Source of the DNA: a virus
Lineage: Duplodnaviria > Heunggongvirae > Uroviricota > Caudoviricetes
IMG/VR virus record: IMGVR_UViG_3300008267_008434
DNA: 64,000 bases
Direction: 5' to 3' (one strand)
A program made the translations under genes and the position numbers. Below the pieces are notes generated by a model, which saw only the letters and a program-made list of their open reading frames with translations, was not told the DNA's origin and ran no database searches. Below, piece after piece: positions 11,066 through 61,406 of this stretch. The first letter of the stretch is position 1; each line of letters starts with the position of its first letter.

Positions 11066-11117
11066 GATAGATGACTAAGTGGATTTTTATTCTTATATTT
11101 AGGTAAATAAGTTTAAA

Positions 11118-12715: not shown

Positions 12716-12746
12716 TAATTATTTGTATATTTGTAAAAAAAACAAT

Positions 12747-39435: not shown

Positions 39436-40848
39436 ATGGTTATGAGAAAAAATTTAATATTAGAATCAGGATTAAGGGATATTAACAAATTAGCTAAAAG
39501 ATACCCTAAAGCTAAAATATATTTTCACCAAGATTTAGATGGTGTTACTACCGCACTTGCAATGAAACACTATTTGGAGAATAATGGTATTAAAGTTGTT
39601 GATGCCGAAATAATCCAATACGGGGATAAAGAATTTTCAGTTAAGAAATTAGATGCTGAAGGTGATACAATGCCTGTACTGGTAGATTTTGCCCACGGAA
39701 AACCAATGTTTGTTATTCATACCGATCACCACGATACTCAAGCCGGAGTTGAACAAGGAACATCAACAAGTTTTAGATCATCAAGATCGAATGTTGAAAC
39801 AATATCTCAAACAATATCACCTAAAGATATTTTCTCACCTGAAGACATTACATTAATATCAACTGTGGATTCTGCAGATTATGCAAAACACGATATCGCA
39901 CCTGAACAAGTGATGAACTACCTATTCAAATTAGATAAGGATAAAACATTACAAAGAAATAAAATGTTAATGGGGTTGGTTGTTAATAAACTATTATTAG
40001 CATATAAAAATAAACCAGGTTTTCTTGAAGAAATTGTTTTAACCGCAAATCCATCATTAATGAGTATCCTGAATAATATTAGAGGACAAATGATGAGTAA
40101 AGGATACGCTGAGGTTGGAGATCTTGAAAAGAATAAGGAAATGTATGTCCAAACGATGAAGTCACATCCTAATGTTAAAATTGATGACAACATTATTGTA
40201 CAATATGGTGGTGGATCAATGATGAAACCAGGTTCTTATGATAGATACACCCCATTTAGAAATAATCCTGATGCCGACTTCTTAGTTATTGCTTGGCCGT
40301 TAGGATTGGTTCAAGCATCCTGTAACCCATTCAAAAAAGAAAGAGCACTTAAAGGAGTTAACTTAGGTGAGATTAAAGATGAAGTATTAGGAAAATGGGA
40401 ATCACAATTAAAAGATAGGGATATTCCATTATCAACAATTAAGTGGATATCAGAATCAGGAAAAGGATTTACACCTGAATCTGTTGGGTTCACATATAAA
40501 GATTTTAGAGCGTTATACGGAGATAAATTCAAATCAAAAGACGGTAAAGATTTTATGAGAGATATTGATACGGCAATGTCAAAATCATTTACCGATTTAA
40601 CTGATGAAGAGATGAGTTTACTTGATAGTGTTACCGTAACTGCTTGGGACATTATCCAATCAAATAGTGGAGGACATAAATGTATAACTAACATTTCGGG
40701 ATTAAATTATATGGGTAGAAGTAAAAGACCACCTCAAGGGAAATACAAATATAGTTCTGAAAATGAGGACGCTGCGTATGTGAAATTTACTAAAATGATT
40801 CAGAATGAATTTGTTAGATTATTGAAAGAGAAAGTTCAAGAAGGTTAA
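39436..40848 (+). CDS. DHH/DHHA1-family phosphoesterase (NrnA/RecJ-like)
   Basis: Motif I 'HQDLDGVTTA', motif II 'LVDFAHG', motif III 'HTDHHD'. DHHA1 'GGH' in 'SNSGGHKC'. Confidence 0.6.
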   Translation: MVMRKNLILESGLRDINKLAKRYPKAKIYFHQDLDGVTTALAMKHYLENNGIKVVDAEIIQYGDKEFSVKKLDAEGDTMPVLVDFAHGKPMFVIHTDHHDTQAGVEQGTSTSFRSSRSNVETISQTISPKDIFSPEDITLISTVDSADYAKHDIAPEQVMNYLFKLDKDKTLQRNKMLMGLVVNKLLLAYKNKPGFLEEIVLTANPSLMSILNNIRGQMMSKGYAEVGDLEKNKEMYVQTMKSHPNVKIDDNIIVQYGGGSMMKPGSYDRYTPFRNNPDADFLVIAWPLGLVQASCNPFKKERALKGVNLGEIKDEVLGKWESQLKDRDIPLSTIKWISESGKGFTPESVGFTYKDFRALYGDKFKSKDGKDFMRDIDTAMSKSFTDLTDEEMSLLDSVTVTAWDIIQSNSGGHKCITNISGLNYMGRSKRPPQGKYKYSSENEDAAYVKFTKMIQNEFVRLLKEKVQEG

Positions 40849-41246
40849 TCAAAGTATACTCTATCTCCTTTTGTAATATCATATTCTTCACAGGTTCCGC
40901 CCATAACTTCTAATATCATATCACCATTACCAGGATATCTCTTACATGGGTTAGAAGTACAAGGTTCACAGTTATGATGTATCTTAACAATAGTATTGTT
41001 ACTTATATAGATAATATCCAAAGGAATTATACAATCCTTCATCCAAAAAGAATGTTCACTATCATTCATTATAAATAACATTCCATCAAATGTATCATCA
41101 AATTTTTTACCCATCATACCTTGTTGAGTGTCTTTTGATGTCATTACACATTTGACATTGAACAAATTGTTATTTATTATTATATCCATATACATAAATA
41201 TAATGGCTAATAGAAAACTAAAAAGATTTTCGGGAATACTTGTCAA
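40845..41246 (-). CDS. DUF192-family protein
   Basis: 'GMLFIMNDSEHSFWMKDCIIPLDIIYI' matches the DUF192 (COG1430) core. The true start is probably an internal Met to avoid overlap with the Nudix gene. Confidence 0.5.
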   Translation of the reverse strand: MTSIPENLFSFLLAIIFMYMDIIINNNLFNVKCVMTSKDTQQGMMGKKFDDTFDGMLFIMNDSEHSFWMKDCIIPLDIIYISNNTIVKIHHNCEPCTSNPCKRYPGNGDMILEVMGGTCEEYDITKGDRVYFD

Positions 41247-41631
41247 GTGTGGTAATAAATTTTTACTTTGTAAAAGAAGTCCTGATCAGTCTTCACCTAA
41301 TATATGGTCGGTTCCTGGTGGTGGTGTTGAGTATGGTGAAAAACCTAAAGAAACTGCAATTAGGGAGTTTTATGAGGAAACTAATATTGATTTAACTAAT
41401 GAGATTAATGACATAAGATTAGTTGGTACTTTTAATACATATACTAAAAATGGTGAAGTTAAAGGGATGATGTATATCTACTATTACCAATCAGATGTAG
41501 AGATATATCCTGATTTGGATATGGCTAAAGATGGACACGAACATAGCGAATGTGGGTACTTTAATTTCATGGATTTACCAATTGATGACCATAAAGACCC
41601 ATTATTTAGATTAATTTTAACACTTTTGTAA
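41203..41631 (+). CDS. Nudix hydrolase
   Basis: Nudix box 'GGGVEYGEKPKETAIREFYEETNI'. Start chosen at MANRKL. Confidence 0.8.
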   Translation: MANRKLKRFSGILVKCGNKFLLCKRSPDQSSPNIWSVPGGGVEYGEKPKETAIREFYEETNIDLTNEINDIRLVGTFNTYTKNGEVKGMMYIYYYQSDVEIYPDLDMAKDGHEHSECGYFNFMDLPIDDHKDPLFRLILTLL

Positions 41632-43898: not shown

Positions 43899-44288
43899 AT
43901 GGAAAATACATTATATATCGTAAGAGGAATACCAGGTAGTGGTAAATCAACATTTGCAAAAACTTTAGGTGGACAACACTATGAAGCGGATATGTTCTTC
44001 ATTGATGAGAATGGTGTGTATAATTTTGATTTCACTAAAATAAAAGATGCGCATCAATGGTGTCAGAGTTTTGTTAAATCTGATATGATATTGGAATATC
44101 CCAAGATTGTGGTTTCAAATACATTCACACAAGAGTGGGAGATGCAACCATACATTGATATGGCGAAAGAACATGGGTATAAAGTATTCACTATTGTAGT
44201 TGAGAATAGACACGGAGGTGTAAATGAACATAATGTTCCCGAACAAGTTTTAGAAAATATGCGTAATCGTTTTGAAATTAACCTTTAA
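43899..44288 (+). CDS. P-loop polynucleotide 5'-kinase-like protein (T4 Pnk kinase-domain-like, AAA_33)
   Basis: 'GIPGSGKST' Walker A and 'HYEADMFF'. C-terminal 'VPEQVLENMRNRF' parallels the T4 Pnk kinase 'VPIDVLRSMYKSM'. Confidence 0.55.
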   Translation: MENTLYIVRGIPGSGKSTFAKTLGGQHYEADMFFIDENGVYNFDFTKIKDAHQWCQSFVKSDMILEYPKIVVSNTFTQEWEMQPYIDMAKEHGYKVFTIVVENRHGGVNEHNVPEQVLENMRNRFEINL

Positions 44289-44940
44289 CCAAAAACTTTT
44301 TAAAATCGGTTGTTGAAGGTTTTTCATTTTTAAAGTAATAAGTTTCTGTTTTACCATTATAAGTTATTTTCTTATAATATCCATCAGGAACCGTGGCGCC
44401 TGATTTGAGTATTGTGGATTTTTTTGAAAATACACAAATTACAATAACAGACACCTCATACTTTAATGCCAATTCTCTTTCATACGCTTCTAATAAACGC
44501 CAAGTGGTTCTATTGAGATCTTGTTGTTGTAATGTACAGTTAAGGTAACTAAATGTTTTCTTTAACATAATCTTATCACAATTAAAATCTGCGGCAGGTG
44601 CCATATGTCCCTTGTCCCAAATGTTATTTTCATAATCTTTTGAGTCAGATGTTTTAACAGAATCACAAGTGAAGAAATCCATACCAGATCTTGATGCATT
44701 ACCTGACGGACAATCCACGGTATAACTCACAGATAAAGGTTGTTCTAATTTCTCAGAATAAACAACGGTAAAAATATCACTTTTAATGATTACACTATCT
44801 CTTAATGGTTTTTGAGATAATAAAATAAAAGGGAAAATAAAAAATAAGGATAATAAAAACTTTTTCATTTCAATAAATATCAATATATTTGCAATTATGG
44901 GATTTAAAAAAATATTAACGACAGGAAAAGTGTTCATCAC
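44278..44940 (-). CDS. Secreted DNA/RNA non-specific endonuclease (NUC/Serratia-nuclease family)
   Basis: Signal peptide 'MKKFLLSLFFIFPFILLSQ'. Active-site 'DKGHMAPAADF' (DRGH motif). Confidence 0.6.
   Translation of the reverse strand: MMNTFPVVNIFLNPIIANILIFIEMKKFLLSLFFIFPFILLSQKPLRDSVIIKSDIFTVVYSEKLEQPLSVSYTVDCPSGNASRSGMDFFTCDSVKTSDSKDYENNIWDKGHMAPAADFNCDKIMLKKTFSYLNCTLQQQDLNRTTWRLLEAYERELALKYEVSVIVICVFSKKSTILKSGATVPDGYYKKITYNGKTETYYFKNEKPSTTDFKKFLVKG
44884..44891 (+). promoter_or_regulatory. -7 box TAtaTTTG, 5 nt before the ATG
   Basis: tatatttg-caatt-ATG. Confidence 0.45.
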
Positions 44941-45550
44941 AAGTGATACTCACTATGGACACAAAAATATATGTCGTGGTGTGACAAATTGGAGAACACA
45001 AGATGGTGAAGTACCGGTAGATTCTACTCGTGATTTTCAAACTATTGAACAAATGAACCAACGATTGGTTGACGGTATTAATAGTGTTGTTGGACAAGAT
45101 GATACCTTAATTATGTTGGGTGATGTTTCATTCGGAGGATTTGATAATATTGGAATCTTCCTTGAAAGATTGGTTTGTCACAACATTCACCTCGTACTTG
45201 GAAATCATGATCATCATATTGAGAACAACCGTGATTATGTACAAGGGAGATTCCTGAGTGTACAACACTATTTGGAGGTGAACATCAATGGGAAAGACTT
45301 TGTACTTTGTCATTACCCATTACAAAGTTGGAACGGATTGAATAAAGGTGTTATTCATTTACACGGTCATGTTCACTTACCTGAACACCGTAAATTTGGT
45401 AATGGTAAAAGAATGGATGTTGGTGTTGATGGTAACGGTATGGATCCATATAATATTGATGATATCATTAGAATTATGGGTAAAATACCTGTTGGTTCTG
45501 ACATGAGTGGTGATCATCATTTGGATGGTTTGGTTGGAGTTGTGGGTTAA
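44897..45550 (+). CDS. Calcineurin-like metallophosphoesterase
   Basis: 'ITSDTHYGH', 'LGDVSFGG', 'LVLGNHDHH', 'HLHGHVH' motifs. Confidence 0.6.
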   Translation: MGFKKILTTGKVFITSDTHYGHKNICRGVTNWRTQDGEVPVDSTRDFQTIEQMNQRLVDGINSVVGQDDTLIMLGDVSFGGFDNIGIFLERLVCHNIHLVLGNHDHHIENNRDYVQGRFLSVQHYLEVNINGKDFVLCHYPLQSWNGLNKGVIHLHGHVHLPEHRKFGNGKRMDVGVDGNGMDPYNIDDIIRIMGKIPVGSDMSGDHHLDGLVGVVG

Positions 45551-45576
45551 ATCACAACTCCTTTATATTTATATGT

Positions 45577-46827
45577 ATGAAGAAAAATTTAATCATTACT
45601 GAAAATCAACTTGAGATTATTGTAAATAATCTCTTACTGAATGAAGCCGTTGGAGTTCCTGAAGGAATCATTGAATCGGCTGAAGAACTATATGAAATCA
45701 TATTAAACCTATTAAAAGGTATGGATGATTACGACACAACACAAACATTTACTGAAGATAATTTAGATTTAACAATATCTGATTATAAAATACACGAATT
45801 AGAGTTAGCAGTTCAAGTTCACGAAATGGATGAATATGATGGACCATTCACTATGATATCAGCCGGTGTTGCAAATCAATTTAATTTTGATAGAAAACTA
45901 CTAATGAAGGTTCATAAACAGGATAACACAATTGAGTTACAATTACATTTTGCATCAAATGGGGATGATTGGGATTCCCAAGACCCTTATAATTACTTTA
46001 CTAATGATAGAGTTCAATTAATATCTGTAATTGCTCACGAAATTAAACATAAGTTTGATAAACAAAAAAAGACAACTGACTTGATAGGGAAAGATGCTGA
46101 TTATCAAGCATATGCAAGTCAAGGGTTAAACTTCGGAATTCCGGTTATTAGTGAATTTATGAGATATAGTTATTTCATTCAATATGTTGAAAATCTTGTT
46201 AGACCAACTGAAATGGCAACAAGAATGAAATTAACTGGAGTAACAAGAGAAAAGTTTAGAGAATTTTTTGAAAATGATAGTGTTGTTAAAGAACTAAAAG
46301 AAATTAGAGATTTTAGTTTTGAACATTTTATGGAAGAATTACATAATCAAATGGATCGTGTGGATGGTTTATTAGAACACGCAGATGTGGATTATGAAAA
46401 TATGACTGAAGAGGAAAAAATAAAGGTAGTTATGGATATAGTTTATATTAATCTTATTAGTGCTAAAAGAGATATTTTTGATAAAATGACGGATAGTGTT
46501 GATAGTGAAATGGCTAATTTTATGAGAATGTTAGGTATGGGTGTTAAGCGTGAGAACGATGAAGGATTGGAAAAAGTTAGACATAAATATTTAAATCAAC
46601 TTGCCAAATATCGTAATAGAGAAAGTCAGTTCTTTGTTGATGAATGTGAAAGATTTAACTATGTTGCAACAAAATTAATTAAACGACTTGTAAAAATATA
46701 TTCACTTATTCCTGACGAAAAAGAACAAACCAACGAATCAATTCTTAATTGGGAGTTACACCAACAAATAATGGAGAAAAAATACGGAAAAAGAAAAATA
46801 GAAAAAGAGTTTAAATTTAAACGGTAA
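45577..46827 (+). CDS. Hypothetical protein with leader-like N-terminus 'MKKNLIITENQLEIIV'
   Basis: 416-aa ORF. Confidence 0.45.
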   Translation: MKKNLIITENQLEIIVNNLLLNEAVGVPEGIIESAEELYEIILNLLKGMDDYDTTQTFTEDNLDLTISDYKIHELELAVQVHEMDEYDGPFTMISAGVANQFNFDRKLLMKVHKQDNTIELQLHFASNGDDWDSQDPYNYFTNDRVQLISVIAHEIKHKFDKQKKTTDLIGKDADYQAYASQGLNFGIPVISEFMRYSYFIQYVENLVRPTEMATRMKLTGVTREKFREFFENDSVVKELKEIRDFSFEHFMEELHNQMDRVDGLLEHADVDYENMTEEEKIKVVMDIVYINLISAKRDIFDKMTDSVDSEMANFMRMLGMGVKRENDEGLEKVRHKYLNQLAKYRNRESQFFVDECERFNYVATKLIKRLVKIYSLIPDEKEQTNESILNWELHQQIMEKKYGKRKIEKEFKFKR

Positions 46828-46833
46828 AATATA

Positions 46834-46861
46834 ATCCTTCACTTTTGTGGAGGATTTTTTA
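46834..46861 (+). terminator. Rho-independent terminator
   Basis: atccttcac-tttt-gtggaggat (one G-U pair) followed by ttttttatt. Confidence 0.55.
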
Positions 46862-46872
46862 TTATTCATAAT

Positions 46873-47241
46873 ATGAAAAAACTATTATTATTTATTCCAC
46901 TAATTACACTATTATCATTTAAATCATCAGAAAAAATCTACACAGGAACCGCATCTTATTACGGACAACATTGGACAGGTAGAAAGACATCATCAGGAGA
47001 ACTATTCCACAAAGACAGTTTAACTGCGGCTCATAAGTACTTTAAGTTCGGAACAATTGTGAAAGTAACAAACACAAGTAATGATTCTGTTAGATATGTT
47101 AAGATCAACGACAGGTTACCAAAATCATCAAGTTTTGTGATTGATTTGAGTTACGGAACCGCAAAGGAACTTAACTTCATTAGAAAAGGAATCACCAAAG
47201 TGACACTTGAACCAGTTGACACAGTTCCGATTAAGAAATAA
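46873..47241 (+). CDS. Secreted RlpA-like double-psi beta-barrel (DPBB) protein
   Basis: Signal peptide, then 'GTASYYGQHWTGRKTSSGELF...LTAAHKYFKFGTIVKVTN...VRYVKINDRLP', which is the RlpA/expansin-like DPBB signature. Confidence 0.6.
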   Translation: MKKLLLFIPLITLLSFKSSEKIYTGTASYYGQHWTGRKTSSGELFHKDSLTAAHKYFKFGTIVKVTNTSNDSVRYVKINDRLPKSSSFVIDLSYGTAKELNFIRKGITKVTLEPVDTVPIKK

Positions 47242-47247
47242 ATTTTA

Positions 47248-47281
47248 CAAACCCCACTTCAAATAAGAGTGGGGTTTTTTG
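47248..47281 (+). terminator. Rho-independent terminator
   Basis: aaaccccact-loop-agtggggttt followed by tttt. Confidence 0.65.
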
Positions 47282-47301
47282 TTTAATCAGATATTTATTA
47301 A

Positions 47302-47309
47302 TAAATTTG
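47302..47309 (+). promoter_or_regulatory. -7 box TAaaTTTG, 4 nt before the ATG
   Basis: taaatttg-taaa-ATG. Confidence 0.45.
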
Positions 47310-47313
47310 TAAA

Positions 47314-47610
47314 ATGAAAAAAGTAATAAGACTAACCGAATCAGACTTGACAAGAATAATCCAAAGGGTTATTACCGAATCCAAAAAGAAACAAAGTAAA
47401 TCTGAAATATTAAAGATGTCAAAAGAAGAATTGGAAGATGTTTATGGTGAATTGGAAATAAAGGGTGAATACCATGGAAAAAAAGGAACATTCCACCATT
47501 TTAAAAAAGCTATGTTTGATGTTGTTTGTAGTTTTAGAACTGACGATACAACACCATCAGGTTTAAAAAGAAATACAAAAGGAATTAAAGTTAAAAATTT
47601 AGATATTTAA
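47314..47610 (+). CDS. Small basic protein, leader-motif paralog 1 (MKKVIRLTESDLTRIIQRVI)
   Basis: 98 aa, Lys-rich. Shares the N-terminal ~20 aa (and ~45 nt) with the next two genes and with the gene at 31860. Confidence 0.55.
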   Translation: MKKVIRLTESDLTRIIQRVITESKKKQSKSEILKMSKEELEDVYGELEIKGEYHGKKGTFHHFKKAMFDVVCSFRTDDTTPSGLKRNTKGIKVKNLDI

Positions 47611-47614
47611 TGTT

Positions 47615-47947
47615 ATGAAAAAAGTAATAAGATTAACCGAATCAGATTTAACAAGGATTGTTAAACGAGTGATCAATGAAAATAAGAAAAAACCATCAAA
47701 TGAAAAAATTGAGGATGTGTTAAAAAAACTTATGGATGATTACATTGGTGAGGATGAATGGAAAGGTGGTTATAAAGAATCGTCAGATAAACCATATGAC
47801 AGATTTATGGTTAGTTTTAAACAATCGGGGGATGACACCGAAGAGATTGCTGAAGAAATCATTGAGAAACTAAATAATAAATTTGAAAGTAACTTATTTA
47901 AACTTGGTAACGCAAGTAAAAACTCATTTTGGTTTTATATAAAATAA
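47615..47947 (+). CDS. Small protein, leader-motif paralog 2 (MKKVIRLTESDLTRIVKRVI)
   Basis: 110 aa. Tandem paralog. Confidence 0.55.
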   Translation: MKKVIRLTESDLTRIVKRVINENKKKPSNEKIEDVLKKLMDDYIGEDEWKGGYKESSDKPYDRFMVSFKQSGDDTEEIAEEIIEKLNNKFESNLFKLGNASKNSFWFYIK

Positions 47948-47951
47948 TGAT

Positions 47952-48299
47952 ATGAAAAAAATAATTAAACTAACCGAATCAGACTTGACAAGAATTGTTA
48001 ATCGTGTGATTAAAGAAAATGAATCTAAATCTGATTTATTAGACTTAACCGTTTTTCAGTTGAGAAAAAAATTGGGTTTACCTAGTGGGTGTAAGATTGA
48101 GATTAAAAAGGGTGATGTTTCAGGAAAGAAACTTAAATATACTAAATATGTTAAATACATTATTACTCAATTACCGTCACCTGTTGACGGTAATCGTGAA
48201 AAAATAATGGATAAAATAGAATCATTAGAATCTAAAGATATTAATTCTCATGCATCACCCAATTTTGGAAAGGGAGTGACTTGGATTATTAAATACTAA
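47952..48299 (+). CDS. Small basic protein, leader-motif paralog 3 (MKKIIKLTESDLTRIVNRVI)
   Basis: 115 aa. Tandem paralog. Confidence 0.55.
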   Translation: MKKIIKLTESDLTRIVNRVIKENESKSDLLDLTVFQLRKKLGLPSGCKIEIKKGDVSGKKLKYTKYVKYIITQLPSPVDGNREKIMDKIESLESKDINSHASPNFGKGVTWIIKY

Positions 48300-48323
48300 A
48301 AGTATAACATATAAAAAATATTT

Positions 48324-48357
48324 AACCTCCCTTCAGAAATGTTGGGAGGTTTTTTGT
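48324..48357 (+). terminator. Rho-independent terminator
   Basis: aacctccc-loop-gggaggtt followed by ttttgtttt. Confidence 0.65.
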
Positions 48358-48376
48358 TTTATTAAAAAGTAATTTG

Positions 48377-48384
48377 TATATTTG
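48377..48384 (+). promoter_or_regulatory. -7 box TAtaTTTG, 4 nt before the ATG
   Basis: tatatttg-tgtt-ATG. Confidence 0.45.
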
Positions 48385-48388
48385 TGTT

Positions 48389-48589
48389 ATGAAAAAACCC
48401 TGTAAAGAATGTCCTCATATCGTCCGTAATCGTCATAATGATATGATTGTTGATTTTGCTGAGAGAACCGGTAAGAAACACAATTGTCATATGACGGAAG
48501 GAAAAAAAGATTTGTGGAATGTAACGGATAAAAAATTGTATAAATGTGGGAGGACATTGGAAATTGTTATCTTACTTCCCAACCCTTGA
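48389..48589 (+). CDS. Small Cys/His-rich (zinc-binding) protein
   Basis: 'CKECPH...HNCH...CG' cluster. Confidence 0.4.
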   Translation: MKKPCKECPHIVRNRHNDMIVDFAERTGKKHNCHMTEGKKDLWNVTDKKLYKCGRTLEIVILLPNP

Positions 48590-48636
48590 AGAGGCGAAAA
48601 AAATTCTTAAAAAAAGAATTGATAATGTAAAATAAT

Positions 48637-48729
48637 ATGGAACTACTAATTTTAATAGGATTTATAGGATTTTGTTTAGGTAATATATTTCAAATACTGA
48701 TAAGAGATTATTATTTTAAACGCAAATGA
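48637..48729 (+). CDS. Tiny 30-aa hydrophobic peptide with basic C-terminus (MELLILIGFIGFCLGNIFQILIRDYYFKRK)
   Basis: Unlisted ORF in an otherwise non-coding gap. Single TM. Confidence 0.2.
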   Translation: MELLILIGFIGFCLGNIFQILIRDYYFKRK

Positions 48730-48814
48730 AATTTTTTAAATATTTCATATAACGTCCGATGATCAACAATCGTTTTAATGTTGTTTATTTTTTGTCATAT
48801 TAAAAAATAATTCT

Positions 48815-48822
48815 TATATTTG
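48815..48822 (+). promoter_or_regulatory. -7 box TAtaTTTG, 4 nt before the ATG; TTG at 48792
   Basis: tatatttg-tggt-ATG. Confidence 0.45.
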
Positions 48823-48826
48823 TGGT

Positions 48827-49030
48827 ATGGAAAAAACGACAGATAAAAACGGAAGGGACATCAAAGTGGGTGACTATGTTAAGGTAGTTAATAGAATTAC
48901 AGGATCTGTAGAAGATTCTGGTGTGATTACCAAAATTGAAGGTAGACAAGTTCATCTTGGTGTTGAATCTGTAAATGGTGTGTCATTTGATAACATTTAT
49001 TTAAGAGGGGATGTAATTAAACAATATTAA
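48827..49030 (+). CDS. Hypothetical small protein
   Basis: 67-aa ORF. Confidence 0.4.
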   Translation: MEKTTDKNGRDIKVGDYVKVVNRITGSVEDSGVITKIEGRQVHLGVESVNGVSFDNIYLRGDVIKQY

Positions 49031-49034
49031 TGTT

Positions 49035-49361
49035 ATGGAAACAATAGATAATACAAAATTGAGCACCGATAAGTTAAAGGTGTTTGTTGATAGATTGAAC
49101 AAGATTGGTATTGAAGTTAAACTTTCAGGAAATTTCCCGTGGATTTATATTAATGAGATATGTGGTATAAGAGTAACTGAAAAGTTTGAAGCAAATCACG
49201 GATTTACTGTGATGTTTCTTCCAGGTAGAAATGACTCACCACCATCCGAGTTTACAGATATCACCGAGATATTCAAATTGATTAGAAAATATAATAGAGA
49301 GTCTCTTTTAAGAAAAATAATGGAAGATGATCAAAAAAACGGATTGTATGAAACTGAATGA
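49035..49361 (+). CDS. Hypothetical protein
   Basis: 108-aa ORF. Confidence 0.4.
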   Translation: METIDNTKLSTDKLKVFVDRLNKIGIEVKLSGNFPWIYINEICGIRVTEKFEANHGFTVMFLPGRNDSPPSEFTDITEIFKLIRKYNRESLLRKIMEDDQKNGLYETE

Positions 49362-49737
49362 ATTAAGGGTGGGTAGTATTGTTACCCACCCACTATTTGG
49401 AACACCAACAGAAGTTAGAGCAATCGCATTTAACGGACTATACATAGGAACGGAAGATGGATTACCGATACACATTGATGACTTCAAACCCGTTGAGATA
49501 ACTGAAAAAATACTAGACTTACTTCATTTTGTTGAAATGTCAGATACCGCACCTGGTATTGGTGAATTTCATTGGTGGGAAACTGAAAGTATTACACTAA
49601 CACACCTTTATAAAGGTTTATATGGAATTCAGGGTTTTAGTGATATTAAACCTATGAGATATGTTCACCAACTACAAAATGCTTGTTTTGTCATTGATGG
49701 TGAAGATTTGAACACAACAGATTTGTTAATGATGTAA
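49327..49737 (+). CDS. Hypothetical protein (start uncertain)
   Basis: 136-aa ORF. An internal Met at 49348 is possible. Confidence 0.4.
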   Translation: MIKKTDCMKLNELRVGSIVTHPLFGTPTEVRAIAFNGLYIGTEDGLPIHIDDFKPVEITEKILDLLHFVEMSDTAPGIGEFHWWETESITLTHLYKGLYGIQGFSDIKPMRYVHQLQNACFVIDGEDLNTTDLLMM

Positions 49738-49739
49738 TT

Positions 49740-50066
49740 TTAGAATCTTTTATTATGATAAAATTTGTATAACTGTTTAATCGTGTCCTCAAGCATATCA
49801 GAAACTTCTGTCACAAAGTCTATTTCCTCTTGTTCTGGTAAATCCTCCCACCCAAGTTCATAATTATTCCACATAATTGATTCTACCGCTCTTAAAGTTA
49901 AGTCATATTTAAAACCTCTATAACTTTCAGTTTCGTAATACACTTGTTGTGCATTAATTGAAAGTAACTTCTTAACCTCATCTAAATCAATTCTTCTACG
50001 GAAGAACTTTGTTTCATTCAATAATTCTTCCCTCAATATTCTTCTTATGTTTTCTTGTAGGTTCAT
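49740..50066 (-). CDS. Leader-motif paralog (MNLQENIRRILREEL)
   Basis: 108 aa, minus strand. N-terminus near-identical to the next gene. Confidence 0.5.
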   Translation of the reverse strand: MNLQENIRRILREELLNETKFFRRRIDLDEVKKLLSINAQQVYYETESYRGFKYDLTLRAVESIMWNNYELGWEDLPEQEEIDFVTEVSDMLEDTIKQLYKFYHNKRF

Positions 50067-50068
50067 AT

Positions 50069-50518
50069 TTAATATTTTATTATTTCATAATTTTCTAAAT
50101 CCAAGTTTTTCAAGGTAATCTCTTTTTCATAATTAAAAGTTAAATTTTGAATTATTGTTTGATCTAAATTAATATTTGATTTGTGTGTTTTTATTCTGAT
50201 TATTTTAGCGTTATCATTTATTTTAACATCGGATAAAAACAACCAATCCGTATCGTAAAATAAATATTCATCAGAGGTTCTTATCCAATGTATATTTTTA
50301 TCCTTTTTAAATTCCCCAATAATATTAACTAATCTACTCAATTCAATATATTCAGGTATATTCATCAAACCACCATCATTAAAATCTTTATTAAACAGAT
50401 TATCCCAATTGTCATCAAACCCTTCCATGTTACCATGAAAATTAATATATTCTTTTTTATATTTATCTTTTATGGTTTCTTCCCTTAATATTCTTCTTAT
50501 GGATTCTTGTAGGTTCAT
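50069..50518 (-). CDS. Leader-motif paralog (MNLQESIRRILREET)
   Basis: Start at the internal Met (50518), 15 nt downstream of a minus-strand TAttTTTG box at 50534-50541. Confidence 0.5.
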   Translation of the reverse strand: MNLQESIRRILREETIKDKYKKEYINFHGNMEGFDDNWDNLFNKDFNDGGLMNIPEYIELSRLVNIIGEFKKDKNIHWIRTSDEYLFYDTDWLFLSDVKINDNAKIIRIKTHKSNINLDQTIIQNLTFNYEKEITLKNLDLENYEIIKY

Positions 50519-50564
50519 ATTAAAATAAATATCCAAAAATATTGTTTGGTAAATATAAAATGAT

Positions 50565-50572
50565 TACTTTTG
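50565..50572 (+). promoter_or_regulatory. -7 box TActTTTG, 4 nt before the ATG, in a divergent promoter region
   Basis: tacttttg-taaa-ATG. Confidence 0.45.
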
Positions 50573-50576
50573 TAAA

Positions 50577-51113
50577 ATGAAAATGGACTTAACTAAACTT
50601 ACAATGGACGAACTTATTTCTTTAAGAAATAAAATTGAAGGACTTATTCATTCATATGATGATGGGTATTTGTATATCTGTTCTGTTCGTCAGTTCGGTA
50701 GTGTGTGGGAAGAAAGACCAAGTAGTTTACATTCTTTAAAAGAACTTTGTGGTGAATACAATGGAGACAATGGTATTGTTGATGTATATACCAACAACCC
50801 AAATTTGAAATTCCCTGAGATGGATTTTTATAATTATGGTGATGTTATGTATATCAAATCCGAAGATGATTATAGACAATGGAATAAGTACAATAAGGAT
50901 AAAAACCTAATTGAGGATGTAACACAACGACTTGAAGATTGGGAAAATAAAGACAATGTTCCGTTTAGTTACCGTCCACATTTTGCTCCATTTTGGACAA
51001 GAGAAGAATTGAATGAATGGATCACAGAGTTTGAAAACACTGTTTGGGATTTCACCCCACCAGTTTCAATGAAAGTAGATGAATATTATGATGATGAAAA
51101 TGAACAAGATTGA
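50577..51113 (+). CDS. Hypothetical acidic protein
   Basis: 178-aa ORF. Confidence 0.45.
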   Translation: MKMDLTKLTMDELISLRNKIEGLIHSYDDGYLYICSVRQFGSVWEERPSSLHSLKELCGEYNGDNGIVDVYTNNPNLKFPEMDFYNYGDVMYIKSEDDYRQWNKYNKDKNLIEDVTQRLEDWENKDNVPFSYRPHFAPFWTREELNEWITEFENTVWDFTPPVSMKVDEYYDDENEQD

Positions 51114-51705
51114 TAACATAGATTTAATAAAACCATTATTGAATTTTTCACATTATGGTGACTTCTATATGTTATATGTATTTAAACGAAAGAAGGATCA
51201 ACCGGAAGGTGAAAGGGATAATCACCAATCAGTAAGAACAATTAAAACTTATTGTATTGAGTCCATCCCATATTTGGAAAAAAGATATGATGAGATTAAA
51301 CAACTTTGTGAAATGTTTAAGGCTCGTGCATATATCCATGTCCAAAAACAAAACCACAAAGATGTGTCATTAAATATGTTGGCAATACTTGCCGAACGGA
51401 TTAGAGACGGTGTATCAAACCAAAAAGGTTTATTTGATTCAGTTGTTGGGCAAATTAAAACTCAAGAGAAACGGTGGATTGTGGATATTGACGTAACCGA
51501 TTTTCATGCCGTTACTGAACTATCACAATTTATTAATTATCTTAAACCTGAAGGTAAAAAAATTGAAGCGGTTATACCAACAAAGAATGGGTGGCATTTG
51601 ATAACTGGTAAGTTTGATGTTAAGACTTTCAAGGAGAGATTTCCTGATATAGACATCGCTAAAAAAAACCCAACATTATTGTATTATCCTGAAAGTTTGG
51701 GGTAG
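51079..51705 (+). CDS. Hypothetical protein with AEP/prim-pol-like motifs
   Basis: 'WIVDIDVTD' (DxD) and 'TKNGWHLIT' (sGxGxH) resemble archaeo-eukaryotic primase motifs I and II. Start may be the Met at 51100. Confidence 0.35.
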   Translation: MNIMMMKMNKIDNIDLIKPLLNFSHYGDFYMLYVFKRKKDQPEGERDNHQSVRTIKTYCIESIPYLEKRYDEIKQLCEMFKARAYIHVQKQNHKDVSLNMLAILAERIRDGVSNQKGLFDSVVGQIKTQEKRWIVDIDVTDFHAVTELSQFINYLKPEGKKIEAVIPTKNGWHLITGKFDVKTFKERFPDIDIAKKNPTLLYYPESLG

Positions 51706-51729
51706 TGTTGTGGTATAAAAAAATTATTA

Positions 51730-51737
51730 ATATATTT
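51730..51737 (+). promoter_or_regulatory. -7 box TAtaTTTG, 5 nt before the ATG
   Basis: tatatttg-tcaaa-ATG. Confidence 0.45.
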
Positions 51738-51742
51738 GTCAA

Positions 51743-52004
51743 AATGGAAGTAGAAAAATTTGAACAAGCAAAAAAAGTTAAAGAAGATCTTGATAGATTG
51801 GAAAGACAGAAGTATAAATTAGAATCTGCGCTTAAATCTTGTGGTTTGAGTGTCACGATTGGATTTACACACTCTGGAGGTTTCAACGGAAAAGGTGAGG
51901 TTAGTTTCTATAACAAAGAGATTATTAAAGAAATGATAACCAAAGAACTTGAGAGGTTGAATGAAGAAATAGATTTGGTAAAAGAAGAATTTGAAAAATT
52001 GTAA
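51743..52004 (+). CDS. Small coiled-coil protein
   Basis: Start at MEVEKFEQ after the promoter box. Confidence 0.4.
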
Positions 52005-52107
52005 AAAAAGAAAATATGATAGTGTATCTTGTAGGAGGAATTTGTATGGGTGTAATGTTGAGACCATATGTGGATAAATTAATAACAAATTATGTTAATA
52101 GAAAATA

Positions 52108-53238
52108 ATGGAAAATCAAAATAGCGTAGCATATGTTGGAAAAATAGGTTCAGTAGTTGAAATACCAAATGCTGACAACATAGAACTTGTACTTGTTGGT
52201 GGATGGCAGGCGATAACCAAAAAAGGTGAATACCAAGAAGGAGATAAAGTTGTTGTTGCAACCACTGATGCGGTAATACCACAAGCATTGTCTGACTTGA
52301 TGGAAGTGACTAACTACCTTCGTAAAGGACAACGAGTTAGAACCGTAAAACTTCGTGGATTTTATTCCGAATGTTTGTTAATACCATTCAAGTACTTGGC
52401 ACCAAAATCATTGGTGAACAATGTTAATGAAGGTGATGATATGATGGAAATACTTGGAATAACCAAATACGAACCACCGGTTAAAATGGTTACTTTGGGT
52501 GGAGGTAAGAAAGTTAGATACCACCAAAATCCAAACTTCCATATCTATCACAAATTCCCAAACATGAAGAATGTTCCTGATATGTTCACCGAAGAAGATG
52601 AGGTTGTTATCACCCGTAAAATACACGGAACTAATGCCAGATTTGGAATAGTTAGAAAGAAAAAACTTTCTTTGTGGGATAGAGTGAAAAAGTTCTTCGG
52701 TAATGAGTGGGTTGAGTTTGAATATGTGTATGGTTCTCATAATGTGGAGAAAGGATCTGATTCTCAAGGATTCTACGATACTGATGTGTGGAGAGAAGTT
52801 GCCAACAAATATGACATACGAAAAAAACTTTGGGATCATGTTAAGGATACATATTACCCTGAATCTTTGGAACAAGGACTTACTATCTATGGGGAAATCT
52901 ATGGTAAAGGAATCCAAAAAAACTATGAATATGGTTTGGAGGAAATAAAGTTTGTTGGTTTTGATGTTGAAGTTGATGGTGTTTATCAACCACACCTTGA
53001 AGAAACCGTTCATTTTGATTGTTTGGAACTCCCACAAGTTGAAGTATTATATGAAGGAACTTGGAGTAAAGAAGAACAAGATAAATATGTCTTCGGTAAT
53101 TTTATAAAAGGAACCAAAGTTCCTCACGAAGGTATCGTTGTTAAATCTGTGACTGGTGATCGTCATAAAGTTGCAAAGGTTATCAATCCTGATTATTTAA
53201 TATATGGGGAGAAAAATAATGTTGGTGACTCCCATTGA
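52108..53238 (+). CDS. ATP-dependent RNA ligase (Rnl2-like nucleotidyltransferase)
   Basis: Motif I 'RKIHGTN' (KxHGT), motif IV 'HEGIVVKS', motif V 'KVAKVIN'. Confidence 0.6.
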   Translation: MENQNSVAYVGKIGSVVEIPNADNIELVLVGGWQAITKKGEYQEGDKVVVATTDAVIPQALSDLMEVTNYLRKGQRVRTVKLRGFYSECLLIPFKYLAPKSLVNNVNEGDDMMEILGITKYEPPVKMVTLGGGKKVRYHQNPNFHIYHKFPNMKNVPDMFTEEDEVVITRKIHGTNARFGIVRKKKLSLWDRVKKFFGNEWVEFEYVYGSHNVEKGSDSQGFYDTDVWREVANKYDIRKKLWDHVKDTYYPESLEQGLTIYGEIYGKGIQKNYEYGLEEIKFVGFDVEVDGVYQPHLEETVHFDCLELPQVEVLYEGTWSKEEQDKYVFGNFIKGTKVPHEGIVVKSVTGDRHKVAKVINPDYLIYGEKNNVGDSH

Positions 53239-53545: not shown

Positions 53546-53965
53546 ATGAGACATCACGCAAATTTCTTCATTAACCGACTTGCAACTGAATGGTTAAAAA
53601 ATGGTAAATTGATTATTGGTTGTGATCTTGATGACACAATAATTCCATATAATGAAGAATTAAAAGAACATTGTCAAAAAGTTGTTGACTTGATTTTGGA
53701 ATGTCAAAAAGAAGGTATTATATTTTTAATTAATACTGCAAGAAGTGAACGACAATTGGAAACCGCAAAAGAACAAGTTGAAAAGTTGGGTATTGAAGTT
53801 CATGGGGTAAATCAAATGCATCCTGAGTGGGATAAACCATATGGGATGAATGGTAAGATATATGCAAACATATTCCTTGATGATAGAGGTGGAATAAAAA
53901 GTACATATTGGGATTTAAGTGAGGTTTTATCAATAGTAAAAAGAGAAAGAAGAAATGAAAAATAG
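53546..53965 (+). CDS. HAD-superfamily phosphatase (small)
   Basis: 'IIGCDLDDTII' DxDxT motif I, with 'INTARS' as a motif II-like Thr/Ser. Confidence 0.5.
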   Translation: MRHHANFFINRLATEWLKNGKLIIGCDLDDTIIPYNEELKEHCQKVVDLILECQKEGIIFLINTARSERQLETAKEQVEKLGIEVHGVNQMHPEWDKPYGMNGKIYANIFLDDRGGIKSTYWDLSEVLSIVKRERRNEK

Positions 53966-54204: not shown

Positions 54205-55179
54205 ATGGGACTAAAACATTTAAAAGAACAGAATCCTGATTTGAATATCAATTTAATTGATTTGATTTCCAAATTGGATCCGACTAAAACAAAAAAGTTA
54301 ACACCTTTATTAATTAAGATGTTAAAAGATGGTATTGAAATTCGTAAAAATGATATGTATTGGGGCGGGAATGAAAATGACTCACCAACAGTAAAAATAA
54401 TTAAAGAATTACCCGATTCAAAAATGACACTTTTGAATTGGTTGTGTGTAAATTATTTCAATGTGGAAAATTTGGATAAACTTCCCCTATTTACAGAATA
54501 TCTTGAAAGAGGATTGGTGGAAAATACGGACATATCAACATATAAAGATTTCAACGACATAATTAGGGAAGTTGGAAAGGCAGCAACTAAAGAGATGTTG
54601 AAAAAATCCAAAAAGGATATTATGATTGTTCACGACGACGATGAATGGTTATTCTTTAAACCATTAACTCACGATGCTGCGATTACATATGGGTTTGGAA
54701 CAAAGTGGTGTACATCAATGAAGAACGATGGTGAGTACTTCTATAGATATTCGGCACAAGGAGTTTTGATTTATGTAATAAATAAAAAGACAAACAGAAA
54801 GTTTGGTATTCATAGTAATAATGAGGTTAAAATTGGTATATATGATGAAGTTGATAATCATATTGATTCATTTGAAACTGGTTTACCTAATGAATTGATT
54901 AAAAAACTTTTTGAGTGGTTGGATGTTAAAACTAATCATACTAATTATGACTTGTTCTCACCTGAAGAAAAAATTAAGAGTCGTAAACATTATTTCAATG
55001 GGAAAGACGAAATTATAGAACTAACCGAACAAACTATGGATGAACTTCCAATTCCTGTTGAGGATATGATGATGGAAGAGCCAAGATTGGTACCAAGAAT
55101 GGCACCAAGGTTAGTACCGATGACTATACCAATGAGAAATTATCCTGCAATTTTAAGAGATTTTGACGATTTACCATAA
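54205..55179 (+). CDS. WC[TS]-domain protein (paralogous domain with the 25800..27644 gene)
   Basis: 'IMIVHDDDEWLFFKPLTHDAAITYGFGTKWCTSMKNDGEYFYRYSAQGVLIYVINKK' aligns with the middle of the LRR protein. Confidence 0.45.
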   Translation: MGLKHLKEQNPDLNINLIDLISKLDPTKTKKLTPLLIKMLKDGIEIRKNDMYWGGNENDSPTVKIIKELPDSKMTLLNWLCVNYFNVENLDKLPLFTEYLERGLVENTDISTYKDFNDIIREVGKAATKEMLKKSKKDIMIVHDDDEWLFFKPLTHDAAITYGFGTKWCTSMKNDGEYFYRYSAQGVLIYVINKKTNRKFGIHSNNEVKIGIYDEVDNHIDSFETGLPNELIKKLFEWLDVKTNHTNYDLFSPEEKIKSRKHYFNGKDEIIELTEQTMDELPIPVEDMMMEEPRLVPRMAPRLVPMTIPMRNYPAILRDFDDLP

Positions 55180-56354: not shown

Positions 56355-56594
56355 ATGGAAAAAAGAAGTAATCACTACGGAGATGTTGCAAAATGGATTG
56401 AAAAGGTTATTGACTCTTGTGAGACATACCAACAAACTTTTACTGCCAAAAAATTGATTAGAAATTTTAATGATCAACTAAGGAGAGACACTCCTGACAA
56501 GTATTGGGGAGATTATCAGTATAGTGTTATTTGGCCACTTGAGGCAATGGTAACATCCAAACGACAATCATTCATAAACAAAATTGAGGGGTAA
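56355..56594 (+). CDS. Hypothetical small protein
   Basis: 79-aa ORF. Confidence 0.4.
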   Translation: MEKRSNHYGDVAKWIEKVIDSCETYQQTFTAKKLIRNFNDQLRRDTPDKYWGDYQYSVIWPLEAMVTSKRQSFINKIEG

Positions 56595-57175
56595 TGAAAG
56601 TTATATTTTTGGATCACGATGGAGTTATTTGTCTTTCCAATAATTGGGGAGGACGAACGAAAAAATGGGCAAACTATCGTAGTGAAAACCCTGATAGTAG
56701 TAAGGAAAAAAAAGACGCTCCAGTATCTTTTCGTTTTGATGATTTTGACACTAAGTCGGTTAAAGTTCTTAATGAAATTCTTGAAGAAACAGGAGCTGAG
56801 ATTGTGGTATCTTCAGATTGGAAACTACACGCTACACTAGAAGAACTTGGTGAGTACTATGAGTTACACGGAATAAGTAAAAAACCAATATCATTAACAC
56901 CAAACATAGGTACGTGTACAGTTCATGGTAATTTATTTATTTGGTCCCCACGATGGGATTTAGAACAAACACGAACAATTGAAATTAGACAATATCTTCA
57001 TGATCACCCTGAAGTAACTCATTGGGTCTCTATTGATGACTTGAATATGGGTAAAATTGGTGAACCCTGGAAAGATGAGTGGGCGATAGATAATTTTGTA
57101 TTGACACCAAAATCAAACGAAGGTATTAAACAATCTGGGGTTAAAGAAAAGATATTAAAATATTTGAAAGATTAA
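56594..57175 (+). CDS. HAD-superfamily hydrolase
   Basis: 'KVIFLDHDGVI' DxDGx motif I. C-terminal 'VSIDDLN' Asp pair. Confidence 0.5.
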   Translation: MKVIFLDHDGVICLSNNWGGRTKKWANYRSENPDSSKEKKDAPVSFRFDDFDTKSVKVLNEILEETGAEIVVSSDWKLHATLEELGEYYELHGISKKPISLTPNIGTCTVHGNLFIWSPRWDLEQTRTIEIRQYLHDHPEVTHWVSIDDLNMGKIGEPWKDEWAIDNFVLTPKSNEGIKQSGVKEKILKYLKD

Positions 57176-60276: not shown

Positions 60277-60540
60277 GTGATTAAGGATAATTTTACATAT
60301 TCAGAAGTACTTGAATTACTTGAAAAACTTAACGGTAATAAAGTAGAAAATGTTAAGTATTGGTTTGATGAAACTTTGGATGATGGGTTAAGTAATGTTG
60401 AAAAAATTTCTTATATCTGTGATAATGAGTCAAAAATATTGGAGGCAATTATGAAAGGACATAAGGCTTGTGATAATGACGAGTTTCAAATTGCAAGAGA
60501 TAAAATGAAAAAGTATAGAAAGGAGTTAGGATTAATATGA
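60277..60540 (+). CDS. Hypothetical small protein
   Basis: 87-aa ORF. Confidence 0.4.
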   Translation: MIKDNFTYSEVLELLEKLNGNKVENVKYWFDETLDDGLSNVEKISYICDNESKILEAIMKGHKACDNDEFQIARDKMKKYRKELGLI

Positions 60541-61211: not shown

Positions 61212-61406
61212 ATGAAATATTTTAAATTATTTTTGATGTGGTTGACATTTATTGTCATCGCATCACTTTACGGTGAGTATGTCGTAAGTAGAAATGTTAA
61301 CGGGTTCCTCCAACTTTTAGGTTTCGTTGGTATGGTAGGGATCTTTGGAATAATGGGAAACGAAACAATAAAAATTTTAACAAACAATAAGAAAGAAGAA
61401 AAATGA
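61212..61406 (+). CDS. Small 2-TM membrane protein (NfeD-like partner candidate of the SPFH gene)
   Basis: 'LFLMWLTFIVIASLYG' and 'LLGFVGMVGIFGIMG'. ATGA overlap with the SPFH gene. Confidence 0.4.
   Translation: MKYFKLFLMWLTFIVIASLYGEYVVSRNVNGFLQLLGFVGMVGIFGIMGNETIKILTNNKKEEK

Follow-up and report, generated by a model that had tools for sequence, protein, structure and literature searches.

The 64,000-nucleotide (nt) stretch of viral DNA analysed here (Caudoviricetes; IMG/VR record IMGVR_UViG_3300008267_008434), referred to below as the window, encodes a small P-loop kinase, a calcineurin-like metallophosphoesterase and a predicted RNA ligase of the Rnl5 type between positions 43899 and 53238. 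Judged by their sequences, these proteins probably form a split healing-and-sealing pathway that would mend RNA cut to 5′-OH and 2′,3′-cyclic or 3′-phosphate ends. The proposal is carried by the family assignments, by the intact catalytic motifs and by the linkage of the three core genes, which are operonic elsewhere. Three HAD-family proteins and a conserved neighbour of 208 amino acids (aa) are considered with them. All six open reading frames (ORFs) that an earlier note on this DNA had named as an RNA repair toolkit are present on the + strand with the ends given there, and a check against the Pfam profiles proposed for them (AAA_33, Metallophos, RNA_ligase and HAD) bore out the superfamily of each. 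The features are as follows:

43899–44288, + strand: stand-alone P-loop kinase, 129 aa (AAA_33), polynucleotide-kinase type, candidate 5′-OH kinase
44897–45550, + strand: calcineurin-like metallophosphoesterase, 217 aa (Metallophos), candidate end-healing enzyme for 2′,3′-cyclic or 3′-phosphates
52108–53238, + strand: ligase, 376 aa (RNA_ligase and PHA02142 OB-fold), Rnl5-type
53546–53965, + strand: HAD protein, 139 aa, BT0820-like capless HAD phosphatase, two genes downstream of the ligase
56594–57175, + strand: HAD protein, 193 aa (HAD_SAK_2), candidate 3′- or 2′-phosphomonoesterase
60537–61166, + strand: HAD protein, 209 aa, with the HAD domain at residues 94–209 and an extra N-terminal region (residues 1–93), probable accessory phosphatase
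51079–51705, + strand: 208-aa conserved neighbour of the ligase and kinase, candidate fourth component

The three core enzymes

The kinase matched the Pfam family AAA_33 above its curated cut-off (expectation value, E = 1.5e-11). Among the PHROG profiles it matched phrog_2071 (1.9e-43), phrog_505, annotated as polynucleotide kinase (1.3e-6 over residues 3–126), and phrog_8238, a 737-position profile annotated as RNA ligase (3.5e-5). The P-loop, GIPGSGKST, can be read in the translation. Conservation was assessed, and a profile for searching the PDB was built, from 14 homologues with 49–71% identity. In this set G10xxG13xGK16, E29xD31, N74-T75, E102-N103, H105 and H111 are invariant, and R104 is nearly so. 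D31 lies at about the position of the catalytic Asp of polynucleotide kinases, the alignment being one position off. The top PDB match of the profile over about 100 residues was the kinase domain of Clostridium Pnkp (4gp7, 4.2e-4), followed by T4 Pnk (1ly1/1ltq, 4–6e-3) and Pnkp1 (0.02); the remaining kinases in the search cover the P-loop alone. The best solved matches over this length are thus polynucleotide kinase domains, in agreement with the earlier reading of the protein as PNK-like rather than as a nucleotide kinase. The “T4-Pnk-like C-terminal motif” that had been described was not recovered, since the PDB alignments to T4 Pnk end at residue 101 and only phrog_505 reaches residue 126.

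No Pfam family of dNMP, adenylate, thymidylate or other nucleoside/nucleotide kinases matched the protein at E < 0.01, and adenylate kinase 6ln3 (0.032) aligned in the P-loop region only; a dNMP or adenylate kinase was rejected on these grounds. On the sequence comparisons, polynucleotide kinase is the best-supported assignment, albeit not a proven one. The homologues are 129–137 aa long and have no fused HAD domain, the HAD genes being separate. The family is very large, with at least 7,996 protein matches among 8,000 candidates scored, and a homologue is carried by 625 phage records; in many phages, homologues with about 50% identity adjoin RNA ligases.

The phosphoesterase matched Metallophos in Pfam (1.2e-6, above the curated cut-off) and phrog_547, “phosphoesterase” (1.1e-46). 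Its translation contains the motifs SDTHYGH, GDVSF, GNHDHH and HGHVH, and the binuclear-metal motifs (D17xH19, G75-D76, G102-N103-H104, H139 and G157-H158xH160) are invariant in homologues with 30–89% identity. The sole significant solved relative of the profile in the PDB was Aquifex aq_1665 (1xm7, 4.2e-12), and the same search returned no Pnkp-named or lambda-type phosphatase chain at E values up to 0.1. The GDxxDRG signature is absent, and the protein contains no DRG. These comparisons place the protein in the uncharacterised aq_1665 subfamily and not with the lambda-phosphatase type. The earlier match to the phosphoesterase of Clostridium-type Pnkp therefore holds at the level of the calcineurin-like superfamily and fails at that of the subfamily, given the aq_1665 match and the missing GDxxDRG.

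The ligase matched RNA_ligase (4.2e-14, residues 164–359) and the PHA02142 OB-fold (4.6e-14, residues 8–93) in Pfam, both above the curated cut-offs, and phrog_968, “RNA ligase” (3.5e-61). An N-terminal OB domain followed by a nucleotidyltransferase domain defines the Rnl5 family, the nick-sealing biochemistry of which has been described (PMC1807946, PMC5397189). The match to the NCBIfam model TIGR02306 (RNA_lig_DRB0094) was full-length (3.6e-40, protein residues 12–364, model positions 7–339 of 341); despite this, the score of 137.9 bits fell below the equivalog cut-off of 151.15 bits. The Rnl2 model TIGR02307 gave 3.8e-4 and 20.1 bits (cut-off 197.15) over residues 163–290 only, and the T4 Rnl2 structures matched the ligase profile in motifs III–IV only (3.3e-4). 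The only strong solved relatives in the PDB were those of Naegleria NgrRnl, at 2.5e-16 with the single sequence and 1.6e-21 with the profile. Residues 8–127 align to residues 8–129 of NgrRnl, including the R-x-R-T-x-x-L-R-G segment.

Motif I can be read in the translation as T169-R-K171-I-H173-G174-T. Invariant in 14 homologues with 58–85% identity are T169, K171, H173 and G174 (motif I), E263 (motif III), F285-D286 (motif IIIa), E341-G342, V344 and K346 (motif IV) and K357 (motif V), while K354 is at least 90% conserved; the C-terminus lies 19 residues past K357. When set against the reference list of essential DraRnl nucleotidyltransferase residues (PMC1807946), the conserved residues are the counterparts of most of them, with motif Ia not mappable. 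The protein is thus best described as a divergent RNA ligase of the Rnl5 type (DraRnl/NgrRnl), predicted to seal nicks and not a strict equivalog; we call it divergent because of its score below the TIGR02306 cut-off. Of the earlier description, “Rnl2-like” with a KxHGT motif, the motif is confirmed and the Rnl2 affiliation has to be given up in favour of the much stronger TIGR02306 match. An OB domain had been named as a sign of an ATP-dependent DNA ligase. Such a domain is present, but as the N-terminal Rnl5 module, so that this test does not apply here. A DNA ligase was rejected, since the OB domain is N-terminal, no DNA ligase family of Pfam matched at E ≤ 0.01 and none occurred among the PDB matches.

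Linkage and layout of the core genes

Linkage was counted in the 20 IMG/VR relatives with both 10-kb flanks, which are related loci and not independent. The kinase lies within 10 kb of the ligase in 16 of the 20, in varying order and despite rearrangements, and an aq_1665-type phosphoesterase does so in 11. In locus L033 (the loci compared carry the prefix L), the ligase (10001–11125), phosphoesterase (11133–11765) and kinase (11762–12172) follow one another, the first two 7 nt apart and the last two overlapping by 4 nt. In L016, L024, L027, L029, L033 and L041, the kinase and phosphoesterase genes overlap or touch, with either one first, and in L078 the kinase comes directly after the ligase. 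L046, where the ligase is about 60% identical, was the one locus examined of a distant subgroup without an aq_1665-type phosphoesterase near the ligase; it has a GDIHG-type calcineurin-like phosphoesterase gene (7442–8179) between kinase and ligase, which may be a non-orthologous replacement. A second Metallophos gene is found downstream of the ligase in L058 (12664–13383).

The association extends to unrelated lineages. In Vequintavirus, Pakpunavirus, Thalassavirus, Saclayvirus, Phapecoctavirus and Pseudomonas phage Amme-3, a member of the kinase family sits directly beside an RNA ligase, with a phosphoesterase zero to four genes away. The phosphoesterase is of the same family by alignment in Vequintavirus and Amme-3 (28–32% identity) and was taken from the deposited annotation in the other four genera. 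Where checked, the ligase of these cassettes is of the Rnl1 type: that of Vequintavirus matched RNA_lig_T4_1 in Pfam, and those of Phapecoctavirus and Saclayvirus are annotated as RNA_lig_T4_1 or RNA ligase 1. The Amme-3 ligase matched no Pfam family. In Ralstonia phage RSP15, HD and metallophosphoesterase genes flank the kinase, near tRNA genes. That one healing pair occurs with two families of RNA ligases argues strongly, if circumstantially, for a heal-and-seal pathway, and a functional link of kinase, phosphoesterase and ligase is well supported by these comparisons. The earlier proposal of a split set of healing and sealing enzymes, consisting of a kinase, a calcineurin-type phosphoesterase and an ATP-dependent RNA ligase, thereby gains weight, the association being tighter in the relatives and in unrelated phages than in the window itself.

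In the window, the cassette is pulled apart over 9.3 kb, with about 6.5 kb of small ORFs between the phosphoesterase and the ligase. “Dispersed”, the term used in the earlier note, is thus apt for this genome but not for its relatives, where compact operons are found. Because the cassettes are compact in unrelated phages, the layout suggests derivation from a compact arrangement through inserted small ORFs and a reverse-strand nuclease gene:

44278–44868, − strand: Endonuclease_NS, DNA/RNA non-specific endonuclease (Pfam, 7.7e-24)

This gene, on the opposite strand, splits the kinase from the phosphoesterase, and its product has a signal-peptide-like N-terminus (MKKFLLSLFFIFPFILLSQ). Since it is limited to contigs whose ligase equals that of the window exactly, it must have entered recently between two genes that normally overlap.

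Several further genes lie in or near the cluster. The 416-aa product of 45577–46827 (+ strand) contains an HExxH-like motif (AHEIKH) and falls into no family of Pfam or PHROG; its homologues (39–51% identity) directly follow the phosphoesterase in close relatives and are absent from the compact clusters of distant ones. About 1 kb downstream of the ligase, 54205–55179 (+ strand) encodes a member of an approximately 300-aa family (phrog_17056, phrog_28193) with an “NTKWC” segment, a paralogue of which lies between kinase and phosphoesterase in L011 (2971–3837), L012 (4928–5884), L014 (5593–6507) and L020 (4421–5323). Both families were rejected as core members, as they travel with the cluster in close relatives only and belong to no recognisable family. 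Between the phosphoesterase and the ligase, 47314–48299 (+ strand) holds three tandem paralogous small ORFs starting with MKK(V/I)I(R/K)LTESDLTRI(I/V), and 49740–50536 (− strand) holds two adjacent ORFs with a similar MNLQE(N/S)IRRILREE segment at or near the N-terminus (at residue 7 in the 155-aa ORF, which has a TTG start). These ORFs give the impression of a small-protein family that has expanded locally.

In Pseudomonas and Vibrio phages, the ligase and kinase cassette adjoins a ribose-phosphate pyrophosphokinase gene, and in the Pseudomonas phages also one for nicotinamide phosphoribosyltransferase, an enzyme of NAD+ salvage. This suggests a shared counter-defence neighbourhood.

NAD+-salvage neighbourhoods: L002, 5399–8112; L068, 3421–6247; L069, 5337–6209; L073, 6115–8062

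Accessory proteins and the surrounding genome

The three HAD proteins differ in their ties to RNA repair. The protein encoded at 56594–57175 matched HAD_SAK_2 (PF18143) at 8.6e-21, with 75.2 bits against a cut-off of 27.5 and over profile positions 1–136 of 139, as well as the function-unknown profile phrog_1818 (1.9e-13). Its motif I is intact (D7-H-D9-G-V), and most close relatives keep a homologue 3–9 kb downstream of the ligase. Its sequence places it clearly in the “Swiss Army Knife” (SAK) RNA-repair HAD family; members of this family typically stand alone in jumbo phages, where stand-alone SAK-HADs have been described as RNA-repair phosphatases (PMC7824862).

The protein encoded at 60537–61166 matched LNS2_PITM1-3 (1.4e-8) and Acid_phosphat_B (9e-8) in Pfam, both above the curated cut-offs, and reached 6.7e-4 and 20.2 bits with HAD_PNKP (PF25109), below the cut-off of 27.6. 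Its PHROG matches were phrog_415 (8.6e-12) and phrog_505, “polynucleotide kinase” (4.5e-9), and weak tblastn matches with about 25% identity were obtained to the phosphatase part of siphophage Pnkp. Motif I reads DIDGT. In L040 and L041, the ligase is followed after about 1.1 kb by a 120-aa homologue. The HAD domain thus weakly resembles, at the sequence level, the phosphatase half of phage Pnkp proteins. In L041, a response-regulator receiver protein (12584–13216; Response_reg, 5.1e-28) is encoded directly after this homologue, downstream of the ligase; PMC7824862 mentions a linkage of receiver-like domains to RNA ligases.

The protein encoded at 53546–53965 matched Hydrolase_3 (2.4e-5, above the curated cut-off), phrog_1238 (4.6e-22) and Bacteroides BT0820 in the PDB (2obb, 6.6e-5), and the NCBIfam model HAD_phos_BT0820 below its cut-off (5.9e-8); HAD_PNKP of Pfam gave no match. 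A homologue occurs near the ligase in five of the 20 full-flank relatives. This protein is tied to the module by position alone, and its membership is uncertain. Single-sequence PDB searches of the two larger HAD proteins gave nothing informative. The earlier note had described all three as small DxDG(T/V) phosphatases. This is correct for 56594–57175 (DHDGV) and 60537–61166 (DIDGT) but not for 53546–53965, which has DLDDT. The suggested role in RNA repair is borne out by family for 56594–57175 and not for the BT0820-like 53546–53965, with 60537–61166 falling below the HAD_PNKP cut-off.

The 208-aa protein (51079–51705) matched no Pfam family, and seven homologues searched at E values up to 10 shared no consistent family. 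An archaeo-eukaryotic primase (AEP; primase-polymerase) fold is tentatively assigned from a structural model with a predicted local distance difference test score (pLDDT) of 67.5, without sequence-profile support; a Foldseek search of this model against viral structures returned uncharacterised phage proteins only. In L035, L058, L060 and L077 the family has the kinase or ligase as its immediate neighbour; it lies within 10 kb of the ligase in one of the 20 full-flank relatives. In the crAss-like phage cr116_1, an RNA ligase is encoded about 1.6 kb upstream of a homologue. In Cellulophaga phage phi17:2 (L065, 5616–9401), the homologue precedes a CCA-adding enzyme, a WGR-PARP protein and an ATP-dependent DNA ligase, a second and different nucleic-acid-end-processing neighbourhood for the family. 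If the AEP fold is correct, the protein could add nucleotides ahead of ligation.

The window has a G+C content of about 30%, with nearly all genes on the + strand. According to profile searches, it encodes SbcC/SbcD-like proteins, a DnaG-like primase, a sigma-70 factor, DnaJ, thioredoxin and glutaredoxin, and further a GlnII-like enzyme and several DNA methyltransferases. A search for near-identical DNA among the INPHARED phage records gave no match to the window, and exact copies of its proteins are carried by freshwater metagenome contigs. As relatives of the ligase sit on IMG/VR contigs of up to 290 kb, those of L020, L038 and L057 measuring roughly 270–290 kb, the source is a jumbo phage, one outside the GenBank phage collection. 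The host probably belongs to the Bacteroidota, because homologues of the 208-aa protein were found only in phages of Cellulophaga, Tenacibaculum and Prevotella and in crAss-like phages, and because ligase relatives are also held by Bacteroidetes and Sediminibacterium genome bins.

The following genes make up an auxiliary set typical of large phages:

34483–35682, + strand: GlnII-like glutamine synthetase (1.8e-99, under the curated cut-off)
23046–23975, + strand: full DnaJ
13289–14089, + strand: sigma-70 family factor
about 29158–29749, + strand: thioredoxin and glutaredoxin, adjacent genes
61403–62353, + strand: Band_7/SPFH protein

Upstream of the kinase, at a distance of 2–4 kb, lie genes for a DHH-family protein (39436–40848, + strand), with weak matches to Pfam DHH (4.4e-4, under the cut-off) and a RecJ model (3.6e-3), and a NUDIX hydrolase (41128–41631, + strand; 4.2e-19). 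Both classes are able to act on nucleotides or RNA ends.

The predicted pathway, its alternatives and known systems

The activities, the order of the steps, the RNA substrate and the counter-defence role that we infer are as follows. A host ribonuclease would cleave a structured RNA, most plausibly a tRNA, leaving a 5′-OH and a 2′,3′-cyclic or 3′-phosphate end. The metallophosphoesterase would strip the cyclic or terminal phosphate to yield a 3′-OH, with the SAK-type HAD protein (56594–57175), and perhaps the Pnkp-like HAD protein (60537–61166), assisting it or backing it up. The 129-aa kinase would phosphorylate the 5′-OH, and the Rnl5 ligase, adenylylated at Lys171, would seal the resulting 3′-OH/5′-PO4 nick, presumably kept duplex-like by the secondary structure of the RNA itself. 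Such a pathway might serve to counter host anticodon nucleases.

A number of observations weigh against this pathway. The matches of the kinase to solved polynucleotide kinases are weak (E from 4e-4 to 2e-2), and its AlphaFold model (18 sequences, 78–90% identity) had a pLDDT of 53, too poor for a fold search. The aq_1665 subfamily of the phosphoesterase has no known substrate, and two of the three HAD proteins lack a specific tie to RNA repair. Rnl5 ligases seal duplex nicks, and the sole physiological evidence for them concerns ribo-patch repair of DNA after irradiation (PMC5397189). No healing enzyme is annotated near the Rnl5-type ligases of pf16, Bambus and a spring-water podovirus, and neither tRNA genes nor matches to Rfam RNA families were found in the window. 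In some relatives, moreover, thymidylate synthase genes adjoin the cluster, which therefore lies in a general nucleotide or early-gene region.

The Deinococcus data on the Rnl5 family, together with the AEP-like neighbour, raise the alternative of templated fill-in-and-seal repair, similar to that by LigD or to the proposed ribo-patch repair of Deinococcus. Where phage DNA or an RNA:DNA hybrid is broken or gapped, the AEP-like 208-aa protein would supply ribonucleotides; cleaning of the ends would fall to the kinase and phosphoesterase, and the nick would be sealed by the Rnl5 ligase, for which ribonucleotides are needed on the 3′-OH side. DraRnl indeed needs at least two 3′-terminal ribonucleotides while tolerating DNA in the 5′-PO4 and template strands, and Deinococcus lacking it is more sensitive to ionising radiation (PMC5397189); the adjacency of the 208-aa gene to the kinase or ligase in the four loci given above also fits. 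However, the AEP assignment comes from the pLDDT 67.5 model and lacks sequence-profile support, the protein is near the ligase in just one of the 20 full-flank relatives, and its family also adjoins a CCA-adding enzyme, which acts on tRNA 3′ ends. Furthermore, the same healing pair accompanies Rnl1-type ligases in other phages, and these, like T4 Rnl1, are tRNA-repair enzymes. We consider this alternative unlikely. Its more specific form, in which the 208-aa protein would be a minimal AEP-type polymerase working in fill-in-and-seal with the Rnl5 ligase and the healing enzymes, is a long shot. If true, it would restore nucleotides taken from RNA by host nucleases, or provide ribonucleotide patches in phage DNA breaks, and would give the Rnl5 family a defined set of partners and bacterial LigD a phage analogue.

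It is quite unlikely that the set instead serves the routine processing of phage or host RNA, rather than counter-defence, for instance by rejoining pieces of tRNA or mRNA left by a phage-encoded endonuclease or by intron processing, or by recycling RNA ends that phage nucleases produce. The enzymology would be the same as in repair, so that all of the family-level evidence applies equally, and nucleases are encoded nearby, both in the window (the Endonuclease_NS gene) and, as HNH homing endonucleases, in the clusters of relatives. However, Rfam and tRNA scans detected no intron, tRNA gene or structured RNA in the window, the Endonuclease_NS protein has a signal peptide and is strain-specific, and the NAD+-salvage genes beside the cluster in other phages fit an anti-defence neighbourhood.

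The genes might also share no pathway at all, and owe their proximity to inherited early-gene synteny, with the kinase and HAD proteins acting in nucleotide salvage and the phosphoesterase degrading signalling nucleotides or acting as a protein phosphatase. In this genome about 35 small ORFs are interspersed with them over 17 kb, the cluster adjoins thymidylate synthase genes in relatives, HAD 53546–53965 and the HAD domain of 60537–61166 resemble generic BT0820-like or acid-phosphatase-like enzymes, and calcineurin-like phosphodiesterases of jumbo phages have been proposed to act against signalling nucleotides (PMC7824862). This is nevertheless very unlikely, as synteny alone poorly explains overlapping operonic arrangements in several orders in relatives and an adjacency that recurs in unrelated genera with another ligase family, and the kinase matched none of the Pfam nucleoside or nucleotide kinase families at E < 0.01.

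The split healing-and-sealing pathway would add a further example to the phage repair kits that are a known counter to the widespread tRNA-cutting defences of hosts, one stemming from an abundant, uncultured group of freshwater jumbo phages. Phage homologues of Rnl5 have been noted since 2007 (PMC1807946), and the physiological role of the family has been described as uncharted (PMC5397189). The genetic tie of an Rnl5 ligase to a 5′-kinase and a phosphoesterase, as a three-gene operon in relatives, suggests a healing-and-sealing role for phage Rnl5. Literature searches found no biochemical characterisation of the pair of small kinase and aq_1665-type phosphoesterase, or of its cassettes; since the pair is very common, one biochemical study would annotate many genomes.

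RNA repair kits of jumbo phages were catalogued in 2021 by Iyer, Anantharaman, Krishnan, Burroughs and Aravind (PMC7824862, section 3.4.9). They combine an ATP-grasp RNA ligase with a polynucleotide kinase and a HAD, SAK-HAD or, rarely, calcineurin-like phosphatase, and were read as a counter to host RNases. Each of these enzyme classes is also encoded in the window. The ligases of that survey were Rnl1, Rnl2 and rare divergent ones, however, whereas that of the window is of the Rnl5 type, its kinase is a minimal stand-alone protein of 129 aa and its main phosphoesterase belongs to the aq_1665 subfamily. Among the called genes (approximately positions 1–63,200 of the window), RlaP, CCA-adding enzyme, 2H, KptA and RtcB are not on record. 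The cassettes of Vequintavirus (rV5-like), Pakpunavirus, Thalassavirus, Saclayvirus and Phapecoctavirus share a homologous kinase (40–53% identity) directly beside an RNA ligase, but they are compact and their ligase, where checked, is of the Rnl1 type, in contrast to the Rnl5 ligase and the 9.3-kb spread seen here.

The ligase of the window has its domain order and the T-x-K-x-H-G, E, F-D, E-G-x-V-x and K motifs in common with NgrRnl and with DraRnl of Deinococcus radiodurans. The gene for DraRnl forms a two-gene operon with that for a DEDDh-like exonuclease (PMC5397189), whereas the window ligase is linked to a kinase and a phosphoesterase. T4 Pnkp with Rnl1 and Rnl2 carries out the same three steps as those predicted here (3′ dephosphorylation, 5′ phosphorylation and ATP-dependent sealing), and the HAD fold is present in both. 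In T4, however, the kinase is fused to the HAD phosphatase, while in the window it stands alone, a binuclear metallophosphoesterase would be the principal phosphatase and the ligase is of another family. In Clostridium thermocellum Pnkp/Hen1, a kinase, a calcineurin-superfamily phosphoesterase and an adenylyltransferase occur together, as they do in the window. There they form one trifunctional polypeptide with a lambda-phosphatase-type domain and a Hen1 methyltransferase as partner; here they are encoded by three separate genes, with a phosphoesterase of another subfamily and a ligase of another clade, and no Hen1-like family is on record among the called genes of the window. Jumbo-phage kits of these enzyme classes are thus already known, and the cassette of ligase, kinase and phosphoesterase is annotated in many deposited phage genomes. 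What is particular here is the tie of an Rnl5 ligase to healing enzymes, together with the minimal kinase, the aq_1665-type phosphoesterase, the secondarily scattered layout and a possible AEP-like partner.

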